64,000 nucleotides of DNA from a virus (lineage: Duplodnaviria > Caudoviricetes), in the IMG/VR virus record IMGVR_UViG_3300032116_000009; one strand, given 5' to 3'. A program made the position numbers and the translations under genes. A model generated the notes under the pieces. It was not told the origin of the DNA, did not search any database, and saw only the letters and a program-made list of their open reading frames with translations. This document shows positions 4,751 to 9,391 of this stretch, piece by piece (within the stretch, counting starts at the first letter, position 1; each line of letters begins with the position of its first letter).

Positions 4751-4832
4751 TGTCGGTGAAAGGACTTGAACCTTCACGGATTACTCCATATGGGCCTAAA
4801 CCATACGCGGCTACCAATTACGCCACACCGAC
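4751..4832 (-). tRNA. tRNA-Leu(UAG)
   Basis: TATGG-TTTAGGC-CCATA anticodon arm, long variable arm. Confidence 0.93.
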
Positions 4833-4892
4833 AGTTGGTGACTTCGGATATGATGATCCCGAAGTCTTATGAAAGAACTTATGTCCTTTCAA

Positions 4893-4965
4893 CTCCCCCA
4901 CCTGGACTCGAACCAGGAACCCCAGAGTTAACAGCTCCGTGCTCTGCCAATTGAGCTATAAGGGA
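4893..4965 (-). tRNA. tRNA-Asn(GUU)
   Basis: CGGAG-CTGTTAA-CTCTG anticodon arm, G73. Confidence 0.95.
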
Positions 4966-4970
4966 ATGTG

Positions 4971-5047
4971 TGCCGTTGTGGGGGAATCGAACCCCTACTT
5001 CTCTAACTCCCTTGTCGGGGTGTCCTGACCACTAGACTACCAACGGC
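4971..5047 (-). ncRNA. tRNA-like element with aberrant anticodon arm
   Basis: GCCGTTG/CAACGGC acceptor, D arm GTCT-AGTGGTCA-GGAC, GGGG-TTCGATT-CCCC T arm; no canonical 5-bp/7-nt anticodon arm. Confidence 0.65.
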
Positions 5048-5050
5048 ATT

Positions 5051-5125
5051 TGGTGGCGGGGGGAGGAATTGAACCTCCTTCCTGAAGCTTATGAGACTTC
5101 TGTGCAACCGTTACACTTCCCCACA
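5051..5125 (-). tRNA. tRNA-Met(CAU), atypical (1:72 mismatch)
   Basis: GAAGT-CTCATAA-GCTTC anticodon arm, encoded CCA, U1xC72 mismatch. Confidence 0.8.
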
Positions 5126-5365
5126 ATGATAGCAGCATTTCACTGCTCGTAACACTTTCTTTACAGGGCTGTTATCACCCCGTCTCTCTAAACTAGGGCA
5201 GTAGACTTACTGCGAGAGAATGCAACGATGTTGTTTGCGTTTGTTTTTTGTCCCGTCAACAGATACAACCTTACTACCCCGTCGAAACCTTGGCAACCCC
5301 TTGCAATGGAGTTGTGGGGAGTCGAACCCCAGTCCGAAGCAACAGAATTTGCATCCTCTTGAACA
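5126..5365 (-). ncRNA. ssrA: Circularly permuted (two-piece) tmRNA; outer ends approximate
   Basis: 3' piece (GGGG-TTCGACT-CCCC T arm, CAACTCC-A) lies upstream of the 5' piece GGGGTTGCCAAGGTTTCGAC; G3-U70 pair; tag frame 5238..5188 = ANNIVAFSRSKSTALV*. Confidence 0.92.
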
Positions 5366-5371
5366 TAGTAT

Positions 5372-5400
5372 ATAGTATCAGAAAATTGTTCGGTTGTCAA
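5372..5400 (-). promoter_or_regulatory. sigma70-like promoter of tmRNA
   Basis: TTGACA-17-TACTAT. Confidence 0.75.
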
Positions 5401-5487
5401 CGGAGAGAGAGGGATTTGAACCCTCGGTGAAATTACTCCCACACAGACTTTCCAGGTCTGCTCCTTAAGCCACTCGGACACCTCTCC
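5401..5487 (-). tRNA. tRNA-Ser(GGA)
   Basis: CAGAC-CTGGAAA-GTCTG anticodon arm, long variable arm. Confidence 0.95.
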
Positions 5488-5525
5488 AGTAGAAACATCA
5501 TACCATAGACATGATGTTTGTCAAG

Positions 5526-5996
5526 TCATACAAAAATATATTCTTTCCATTCTGCAACTCTACTTTTCTGAAGATCTAAAACGACTTTACTAAAAGGAGC
5601 ATGAGGAATCTTTTTTAAAGCCATGTTAGTTTCTTTAAGAAGAAGATTTCCTTTTTTGGAATTACATGATGCACAACAAGTTACTAAATTTTCCCAAGTA
5701 TCTTCTCCACCTCTGGACCTAGGAATAACATGATCTATTGTTAGATTAGTTTTAGATCCACAGTATTGACACTCATTATCGTCTCTTTTATAGATCATAG
5801 ATCTAGTTGGATAATCAGTTTTACCGTGTGTGAAGGGCAATTTTACATAATTAACTAAACGAATAATTCTTTTTGTAATTAGTTTTGCTTTTTCTTTGAA
5901 CAAGAGTACTATGGCTCTTTTCCAATTTGTAAAGTGAATTGGTTCATAGGAGCTGTTCAGAACCAATATTGTTGAATGTGGTTCTACTATTTCCAT
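5526..5996 (-). CDS. HNH endonuclease
   Basis: [10 protein letters not shown]-terminus; CQYC...[13 protein letters not shown]...[17 protein letters not shown]. Confidence 0.92.
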
Positions 5997-6034: not shown

Positions 6035-6109
6035 TGGCACCCTGAGAGAGATTTGAACTCCCGTCTTCTTCGTTCGTAGCGAAGCACTCTTCCACTGAGT
6101 TACCAGGGC
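6035..6109 (-). tRNA. tRNA-Arg(ACG)
   Basis: CTTCG-CTACGAA-CGAAG anticodon arm, encoded CCA. Confidence 0.93.
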
Positions 6110-6112
6110 AGG

Positions 6113-6184
6113 CGAAGGATGAGGGACTTGAACCCCCACTAGCGGTTTTGGAGACCGCCGTGCTACCAATTACACCAATCCGAC
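6113..6184 (-). tRNA. tRNA-Trp(CCA), weak acceptor stem
   Basis: GCGGT-CTCCAAA-ACCGC anticodon arm; acceptor GTCGGAT/ATCCTTC has two mismatches. Confidence 0.8.
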
Positions 6185-6185
6185 A

Positions 6186-6262
6186 TGGTATCCATGAGAG
6201 GACTCGAACCTCCAACAAATAGATCCTTAGTCTATTGCCTCTTCCAATTGGGCTACATGGAT
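6186..6262 (-). tRNA. tRNA-Leu(AAG) with short variable loop
   Basis: ATAGA-CTAAGGA-TCTAT anticodon arm, 5-nt variable loop, encoded CCA. Confidence 0.8.
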
Positions 6263-6265
6263 ATA

Positions 6266-6336
6266 CTGGGTGACTAGGATTCGAACCTAGATAAACGCCT
6301 TCAAAGGGCGGTGTCCTACCATTAGACGATCTCCCA
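6266..6336 (-). tRNA. tRNA-Gln(UUG)
   Basis: U1-A72, CTTTGAA loop, G73. Confidence 0.9.
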
Positions 6337-6408
6337 AGCCCTCAGTCGGATTTGAACCAACGACCTACTCATTACTAGTGAGTTGCTCTACCACTGAGCT
6401 ATAAGGGC
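6337..6408 (-). tRNA. tRNA-Thr(AGU)
   Basis: GCCCTTA/TGAGGGC acceptor, ACTCA-CTAGTAA-TGAGT anticodon arm. Confidence 0.9.
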
Positions 6409-6556: not shown

Positions 6557-6569
6557 GTATCGTAGGTAT

Positions 6570-6652
6570 ATCATTTGAGAGGATTCGAACCCCCATTGCC
6601 GCCTCCAAAACGCAAGTGCTATGGCGGAGTGTTACCGTTACACTACAAATGA
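6570..6652 (-). ncRNA. tRNA-like element with 19-nt anticodon loop
   Basis: TCATTTG/CAAATGA acceptor, GTGT/ACAC D stem, CCGCC/GGCGG stem enclosing ATAGCACTTGCGTTTTGGA, TTCGAAT T-loop. Confidence 0.7.
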
Positions 6653-6868
6653 TGTCCTTACGTTGCTTACTCCTTTATTCTACTCATTGGATTTACTTGT
6701 TGGACCTAATCGTTGGAATACTAACTGTGTTCAACTTATTACCCTGTCTCGACTTTAACGAGACTGTGTTCTATAGCCTTTGCGTTTGATAGTAATAAGT
6801 ATACTGACAGGTTTCTTTTACCTTTCAGTTTTCCGTTCAACCCAACTTTTGAATAAAGTTTGGGCAAG

Positions 6869-8826: not shown

Positions 8827-8973
8827 TCATTGATCAGAAATCAAAATACTTTCTCGAAACTCCTCATAAACCGCACATGCATTGAGATAGTCACCCATAT
8901 CTGCAAGGTAATGGATTCGGTCAATGATACTATCTTTTAGATCTTCAACACTATCAATCAGTTGGTTTTCCAT
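8827..8973 (-). CDS. Hypothetical protein (probable start MENQLID)
   Basis: ORF track; overlaps the upstream gene. Confidence 0.55.
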   Translation of the reverse strand: MENQLIDSVEDLKDSIIDRIHYLADMGDYLNACAVYEEFRESILISDQ

Positions 8974-9391
8974 GAAAGTAATCCTTCCTGTAGTAACGAC
9001 CAAGTACATTGCTATTGTAGTATCGGGGTTCTCCCGTGTCAAGGGCCTCTGTCAAGACATTATTTATGAATAACTGTCTGGTTTCTTCGTAGTTACACTG
9101 TCCTTTTGTTTTGTGGAGACTAAGGATTGTTCTAGTAAATCTTTCCTTCCCCCAAAGGTCAACTTCGACTTTGAGCTCAGGACAGGAGCCGTAATAGCGT
9201 TTCCAATCGGACTCTGACTTAACTTTTCTAGATTTTCCTCTCGGTGTGCGGAAGCTCCAGAAATACTTTCTACCAATATAGTCACGATTAGTTGGATTGC
9301 AATGTATAAGATATACAAAACCAAAATTATCTTGAATATGATCAGACTCAAAAATTTCTCCATTGTAGAGCCAAGGATTTTCATAGCTCAT
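8954..9391 (-). CDS. GIY-YIG-superfamily nuclease-like protein
   Basis: FGFVYLI...RDYIGRK...YYGS...NYEE...YYN motif order. Confidence 0.7.
   Translation of the reverse strand: MSYENPWLYNGEIFESDHIQDNFGFVYLIHCNPTNRDYIGRKYFWSFRTPRGKSRKVKSESDWKRYYGSCPELKVEVDLWGKERFTRTILSLHKTKGQCNYEETRQLFINNVLTEALDTGEPRYYNSNVLGRYYRKDYFHGKPTD

Follow-up and report, generated by a model that had tools for sequence, protein, structure and literature searches.

A predicted phage copy of the picocyanobacterial two-piece tmRNA in the tRNA array of a freshwater cyanophage

Introduction

Stalled ribosomes are freed by the RNA known as tmRNA, which appends a peptide tag whose C-terminal residues direct proteolysis in model bacteria. 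A circularly permuted, two-piece form of this RNA (Rfam family RF01851) belongs to Prochlorococcus, marine and freshwater Synechococcus and Cyanobium. The gene described here shares with the picocyanobacterial RNA its permuted order, a short intervening loop and the lack of an encoded CCA, as well as the G3-U70 pair, the T-arm, the GGUUUCGAC motif, a long P2 helix and the first nine tag residues, AN(N/K)IVxFSR.

Phage-borne tmRNAs have entered the literature gradually. Hudson et al. listed them only for mycobacteriophage and Bacillus phage G (Hudson et al., 2014; PMC4131195), and a later survey reported tmRNA in 402 of 18,146 phage genomes, with two-piece calls by ARAGORN accounting for 53 of 133 unique forms, almost all of them from aquatic phages (Buchholz et al., 2022; PMC9004378). 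The tmRNAs of the OM43 phage Melnitz, the pelagimyophages and Caulobacter phages resemble the present one in being phage-encoded, permuted, preceded by an early promoter and presumably dependent on host SmpB, but they are of the alphaproteobacterial type, encode their CCA and have tags ending in AA (PMC9004378). An earlier reading of the present DNA, made from the sequence alone, had noted that some phages carry tmRNA and was unsure whether a permuted one had been reported; Table S1 of the same survey lists permuted tmRNAs in the Synechococcus phages S-CBWM1, S-CAM1, S-CAM3, S-CRM01 and S-SSM7 (Buchholz et al., 2022; PMC9004378).

The tmRNAs of S-CRM01, S-CAM1 and S-CAM3 are the closest described relatives. 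They belong to the same family, with 76-81% identity over about half the length and Rfam scores of 74-128 bits, and they likewise adjoin tRNA genes in phages without SmpB. S-CRM01 shares the phage-only clade of the present gene and has a tag ending in SLVAAL, while the S-CAM1 type differs by a 7-codon extension at the tag start and a VAA or ATA end. Literature searches found no dedicated description of the tmRNA of S-CRM01 or S-CBWM1 and no paper analysing cyanophage tmRNA tags. Permuted tmRNA in cyanophages is already known; what goes beyond the published catalogue is a comparative view of phage-only lineages and of their tag ends.

The gene lies on the minus strand at positions 5126-5365 of a 64,000-nucleotide stretch of viral DNA (IMG/VR record IMGVR_UViG_3300032116_000009), referred to below as the window. 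On the basis of comparative sequence analysis, it is very probably a working phage copy of the picocyanobacterial two-piece tmRNA.

Identification and architecture of the gene

The Rfam covariance model for cyano_tmRNA (RF01851) matched the window at 5381..5131(-) over the full model (positions 1-288) with a score of 116.6 bits (E 6.6e-31), the curated gathering score being 70 bits, and the merged permuted-tmRNA model (RF04321, tmRNA_permuted) gave 80.1 bits on the same gene. ARAGORN also called a permuted tmRNA (tmRNA*), at 5097-5396(-), with the tag ANNIVAFSRSKSTALV; this span is too wide, as it overlaps the tRNA(CAU) at 5051/5054-5125. The sequence-only reading had placed a two-piece tmRNA at 5126-5365 and had suggested ARAGORN and the cyano_tmRNA model as checks; both detect it, on the minus strand. 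These limits fit the predicted transcript, which would start about 7 nt past the -10 hexamer and end abutting the next tRNA.

Read along the minus strand, the order CAACUCC-A-UUGCAA-GGGGUUG places the T-arm and the 3' acceptor strand ahead of the 5' acceptor strand, exactly as the sequence-only reading had described, including the 6-nt TTGCAA linker. The acceptor piece (5307..5365, minus strand; about 59 nt before CCA addition), delimited by the Rfam alignment, the sequence and pair counts, comprises the 5' strand of the long P2 helix (5356-5335), the T-arm (5331-5315), the 3' acceptor strand CAACUCC (5314-5308) and the discriminator A (5307). The gene does not encode CCA. The intervening segment, UUGCAA (5301..5306, minus strand), is variable among relatives while its flanks are invariant. 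The idea that 6 nt is unusually short for this linker was rejected, this being the commonest length in Prochlorococcus genes.

The coding piece (5126..5300, minus strand; about 175 nt), delimited by the Rfam alignment, structure and pair counts, begins with the 5' acceptor strand GGGGUUG (5300-5294) and continues with the 3' strand of P2 (5281-5261) and a small hairpin before the tag frame (5259-5248). The tag frame itself, which encodes ANNIVAFSRSKSTALV, was located by ARAGORN at 5238..5188(-), from the resume codon GCA to the stop TAG. It is followed by a pseudoknot, with a stem at 5183-5163 whose loop bases 5174-5170 pair with 5154-5150, and by a terminal hairpin (5147-5131). Pairing of the two acceptor strands gives G3-U70, a U-G pair that is invariant in all seven relatives compared, so that both alanine identity elements (G3-U70 and discriminator A) are found in the gene, along with the T-arm and the GGUUUCGAC motif. 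The alanine determinant and the tag reading frame of the sequence-only reading are therefore both present.

Compared with picocyanobacterial tmRNA, the phage-borne gene is shorter (251 nt aligned to the 288-position model) and is evolving much faster. It lacks the 5' hairpin of the acceptor piece, its hairpin before the resume codon is cut to 3 bp, and its resume codon lies 62 nt from G1, compared with 72 nt in picocyanobacteria. The tag of the window ends in SKSTALV, in contrast to the near-invariant Q(A/T)APVAA of picocyanobacteria.

Promoter, tRNA array and genomic context

A promoter scan identified a sigma-70-type promoter at 5400..5372(-), consisting of a -35 hexamer TTGACA (5400-5395), a 17-nt spacer, an extended -10 TG and a -10 hexamer TACTAT (5377-5372), in agreement with the promoter that had been picked out by eye from the sequence. 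The hexamers match 10 of 12 consensus positions and are kept across six related contigs, while the spacer between them is variable.

The gene is embedded in an array of tRNA genes, at least 27 in number, on the minus strand, along which five sigma-70-like promoters and, in the same scan, no terminator-like site were found on that strand. It sits between tRNA-Ser(GGA) (5400..5488, minus strand; from ARAGORN and synteny), which lies just upstream with its 3' end touching the -35 hexamer, and tRNA(CAU) (5051..5125, minus strand). The latter has an encoded CCA and a U1xC72 mismatch, and was recognized by the Rfam tRNA model (48.8 bits) and by ARAGORN at a relaxed threshold only; the default ARAGORN run misses it because its tmRNA call overlaps this tRNA. 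Because its anticodon stem is without the three initiator G-C pairs, it may be of the elongator Met or Ile2 type. The order tRNA-Ser(GGA), tmRNA, tRNA(CAU) is common to the related IMG/VR contigs L045 and L047, the first of which lies within a 248.8-kb phage genome estimated to be 100% complete.

Several other elements of the array were observed. A tRNA-shaped element at 4971-5047(-) has good acceptor, D and T arms and no normal anticodon loop, and ARAGORN calls it at a relaxed threshold only, with a 2-nt 'anticodon'. That it might be a decayed form of the tRNA-Ala(UGC) found at this position in L045 and L047 was considered and rejected, the alignment showing no homology. A further tRNA-like gene at 6569-6653(-), with an oversized anticodon loop and the ARAGORN label tRNA-??? 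with anticodon 'gc', is conserved at the same place in L045 (6544-6629). An A occupies the wobble position in three tRNAs within 6035-6408(-), Arg(ACG), Leu(AAG) and Thr(AGU), which also occur in L045; wobble-A Leu(AAG) and Thr(AGU) tRNAs are unusual for bacteria and phages. An HNH endonuclease ORF (5526-5996(-), Pfam E 2.9e-17) lies between tRNA-Arg(ACG) and tRNA-Ser(GGA), and since these two tRNA genes adjoin in L045 and L047 it looks like a homing-endonuclease insertion. A manA RNA motif (RF01745, 4427-4634(-), 100.2 bits, E 9.6e-25) occurs between tRNA-Gly and tRNA-Val.

The genes flanking the array are phage genes, encoding 6-phosphogluconate dehydrogenase, a tail lysozyme, a SegE-like GIY-YIG endonuclease (8954-9391), a Dps/ferritin-like protein and a carbamoyltransferase, and psbA, psbD and ptoX in the window match Synechococcus phages; taken together, this gene content is that of a T4-like cyanomyovirus. 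Among cultured phages, the nearest are the freshwater Synechococcus phages DSL-LC02, DSL-LC03 and S-SRM01, which match in patches only, at 76-84% identity, and the picocyanobacterial host that had been suggested from the tmRNA type holds. Between 88 and 96% of the sampled words of the region were found in freshwater metagenomes of more than 10 studies, and because so many studies contain it the region is taken to represent a widespread freshwater cyanophage and not an assembly oddity.

Structural conservation and selection on the tag

The structure was tested by transferring the Rfam-guided model, together with one pseudoknot, to an alignment of seven phage copies from the clade. The 56 proposed pairs were 96.9% paired across the seven copies, as against 42-53% with slid partners; derivation of the structure from the window's own sequence inflates this percentage, though not the count of compensatory changes. 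Changes on both sides were found in nine pairs (three in P2, two in a hairpin internal to the tag, two in the pseudoknot and two in the terminal hairpin), whereas slid controls gave 0-2 and none of 500 shuffles reached the observed value. The P2 helix, with 17 pairs, was 96-97% paired, and the pseudoknot downstream of the tag was marked by its two compensatory pairs. Upstream of the resume codon, the place at which tmRNAs usually have the pseudoknot PK1, there is only the 3-bp hairpin. A minimum-free-energy fold of the 240-nt RNA (z = -1.12) was set aside as a structural model: it recovered the T-arm and acceptor stem and mispaired the 5' end with the tag region.

Variation within the tag frame followed the coding pattern. 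Among ten clade members, variable sites were distributed over the three codon positions as 6/3/14, and pN/pS was 0.14/0.49, 0.27/0.73 and 0.18/0.92. The synonymous variation, which includes multi-base changes, involved Leu (CTA/TTA/TTG), Val (GTT/GTA), Arg (CGC/CGT/AGG) and the stop codon itself (TAG/TGA), and the frame was intact in all clade members. Judging from these codon patterns, the tag frame is under purifying selection at the peptide level, although part of the tag region, including its C-terminal codons, forms an RNA hairpin, and some of the constraint is thus at the RNA level. Structural covariation and the selected tag frame are two independent signatures of function.

Selection on the peptide also bears on processing. 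If the peptide is selected, then the tag should be translated; translation of the tag needs a free 3' end charged with alanine, and in this gene order such an end requires that the linker be cut. Processing into two pieces is thus strongly implied by the selection on the tag, and charging and tagging are inferred.

Relatives and distribution

The conserved-core pattern was represented by 63 IMG/VR viral contigs and at least 120 picocyanobacterial genomes, and blastn revealed copies, all unannotated, in S-CAM1, S-CAM3, S-CRM01 and the marine virus AG-345-P14. Maximum-likelihood analysis of 155 sequences put the window gene within a phage-only clade of 11 (SH-aLRT 98). Its nearest relatives there are uncultured contigs at 90-93% identity whose tag is identical or nearly so; the other members are two more distant subgroups and S-CRM01. 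The S-CAM1 type falls in a second phage-only clade, of 18. Among the matches listed, one branch, weakly supported (72), has all host sequences on the same side of it, and no viral sequence is nested in a host subclade. The deep placement is unsure, since the phage branches of this tree are far longer than those of hosts.

These results divide the earlier proposal that the gene is derived from the host lineage. The tmRNA is indeed of the picocyanobacterial type, but the data do not point to recent capture from a host, given a phage-only clade whose tag ending is its own.

The same comparisons bear on whether the gene might be an inert passenger or an artefact, be it a piece of host DNA, the remnant of an attachment site or host contamination of the assembly. 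The notion has some foundation, as tmRNA genes often serve as integration sites and temperate phages can carry fragments of them (PMC9004378). The present gene, in contrast, is full length and is set in a lytic T4-like cyanomyovirus context with phage tRNAs and phage genes on both flanks; its order is repeated in independent phage contigs, it belongs to a phage-only clade with no viral sequence within a host subclade among the matches listed, its structure and tag are both under selection, and the region recurs across freshwater metagenomes. Host contamination, which the sequence-only reading had named as one of the findings that would overturn it, is contradicted by the surrounding phage genes, the shared gene order and the many metagenomes, and an inert passenger of any kind is the least probable of the explanations considered, with hardly any likelihood left to it.

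Distribution of the gene is patchy. The L045 genome, S-CAM1 and S-CRM01 all have it, while S-SRM01 gave only a partial match of 17.7 bits, far below the Rfam threshold, and DSL-LC03 gave no match; the gene is dispensable for some relatives.

Annotation of the known copies is incomplete. The tmRNA genes of S-CAM1 (L001, NC_020837.1 ~108674-108942) and S-CRM01 (L002, NC_015569.1 ~88334-88555) are unannotated, and in other S-CAM1 and S-CAM3 records a 'hypothetical protein' is annotated over the place of the tmRNA. In the S-CAM1-type clade (L001, L014, L015, L009 and relatives) the 7-codon extension is a 21-nt insertion before the host-like tag start, which repeats the GCAAAC start and gives tags such as ANTSDSA-ANNIVAFSR..., and some members also have a long insertion before the tag C-terminus.

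Host factors, expression and proposed mechanism

The absence of smpB from the window, which had been noted from the sequence, was borne out by tblastn with host SmpB (best E 2.3). The SmpB family was also not found in four related phage genomes, two of them estimated to be 100% complete (CheckV), in a search whose positive control, a Synechococcus genome, scored 177.6 bits; the reliance on host SmpB that had been proposed is supported by this result. Likewise, neither ClpP (PF00574) nor a CCA-adding enzyme (PolyA_pol, PF01743) was found in five related phage genomes. Because these phage proteins were not found and CCA is not encoded, the tmRNA would have to rely on the host for RNase P, 3' trimming, CCA addition, AlaRS, SmpB and proteases.

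That the phage brings no SmpB of its own is also compatible with a decoy, in which the RNA would mainly titrate host SmpB or block host trans-translation and productive tagging would be unimportant. Such a role has a precedent in the one proposed for the TLD-only tmRNA of mycobacteriophage DS6A (PMC4131195). A decoy, however, needs neither a selected, intact tag frame nor a covarying downstream pseudoknot and hairpin, both of which were found, and it is considered very improbable.

The preferred reading, a working tmRNA, suggests the following course of events. Transcription would start at the gene's own promoter, of an early sigma-70 type, within the phage tRNA array, and the precursor would fold so that the two acceptor strands pair across the 6-nt loop. 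Host RNase P would cleave 5' of G1 (5300). Since CCA addition and charging need a free 3' end, the 6-nt linker has to be taken out: the loop remnant would be trimmed and the discriminator A (5307) extended by the host CCA-adding enzyme, while the 3' end at 5126 would be set by RNase P cleavage at the 5' end of the abutting tRNA(CAU). The resulting pieces, of about 59 nt plus CCA and about 175 nt, would be held together by the acceptor stem and the P2 helix. Host AlaRS would charge the RNA through G3-U70, and host SmpB would bring it to ribosomes stalled on broken mRNAs, where translation would resume at GCA and add ANNIVAFSRSKSTALV. The likely benefit would be a supply of free ribosomes late in infection, at a stage when broken mRNAs are common and host RNA is not renewed.

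In two metatranscriptomes, both from a single study, contigs that cover the gene match it at 98-99% identity. One RNA contig, with a depth of 408, ends at 5353, near the predicted start, while a contig just upstream has a depth of 13 and another bridges the region. This evidence comes from four RNA runs over 4800-5700, in which the contigs show neither ends nor strand and DNA carry-over is possible, and it provides a weak hint of expression.

Tag ends and the fate of tagged proteins

All 119 picocyanobacterial tags among the matches listed end in AA, and 116 of them in APVAA. The 11 tags of viral tmRNAs of other, non-cyanobacterial types all end in AA as well, whereas 34 of the 44 viral tags of the cyano type do not. 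Fourteen of these 34 end in LV, the type found in the window, and another 14 in TA, the rest ending in TV, AV, AL or PA. The host-like front AN(N/K)IVAFSR is kept in all of them. Within the clade of the window, the tag combines an ANNIVAFSR front with an LV end, which is held through synonymous codon changes in three subclades. The window tag (...STALV) thus departs from the host-type ...APVAA, an ending that is a trait of the host gene and not a defining feature of the RNA family.

One interpretation refines the main explanation by giving rescue a changed outcome for the protein. The phage would have kept the rescue half of the system and the host-like tag front while replacing APVAA, and the LV end, in place of VAA, would have been selected as an altered degron that weakens or redirects proteolysis, so that tagged chains are degraded more slowly or differently and ribosome recycling is separated from host ClpXP-type degradation. 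The skew of non-AA ends toward cyano-type phages and the retention of LV across three subclades point in this direction, as does the fact that ClpP was not found in any of five related phage genomes. Reporter stability in Synechocystis is tuned by the final three residues of ssrA-type tags, ASV and AAV destabilising the reporter less than LVA (PMC2860132). On the other hand, a C-terminus ending in LV remains non-polar and may act as a competent degron, the C-terminal codons overlap the RNA hairpin, which may drive part of the change, and the S-CAM1-type subgroup keeps VAA. Drawn as it is from tag comparisons, the altered degron is offered tentatively, as a minority possibility. If it is true, the altered degron could protect truncated proteins of the phage or prevent the host Clp proteases from being overloaded.

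Conclusions

Annotation stands to benefit directly from these observations, as the tmRNA gene has been missed in the reference records of S-CAM1 and S-CRM01. Large freshwater cyanophages carry what is very probably a functional ribosome-rescue RNA beside a near-complete tRNA set, and the two together fit a strategy in which translation is kept going after the renewal of host RNA stops. Cyanophage tmRNAs form phage-only lineages in which the host tag front is under selection and the C-terminal residues have been replaced. This replacement raises the testable question of whether phages retune the fate of tagged proteins.
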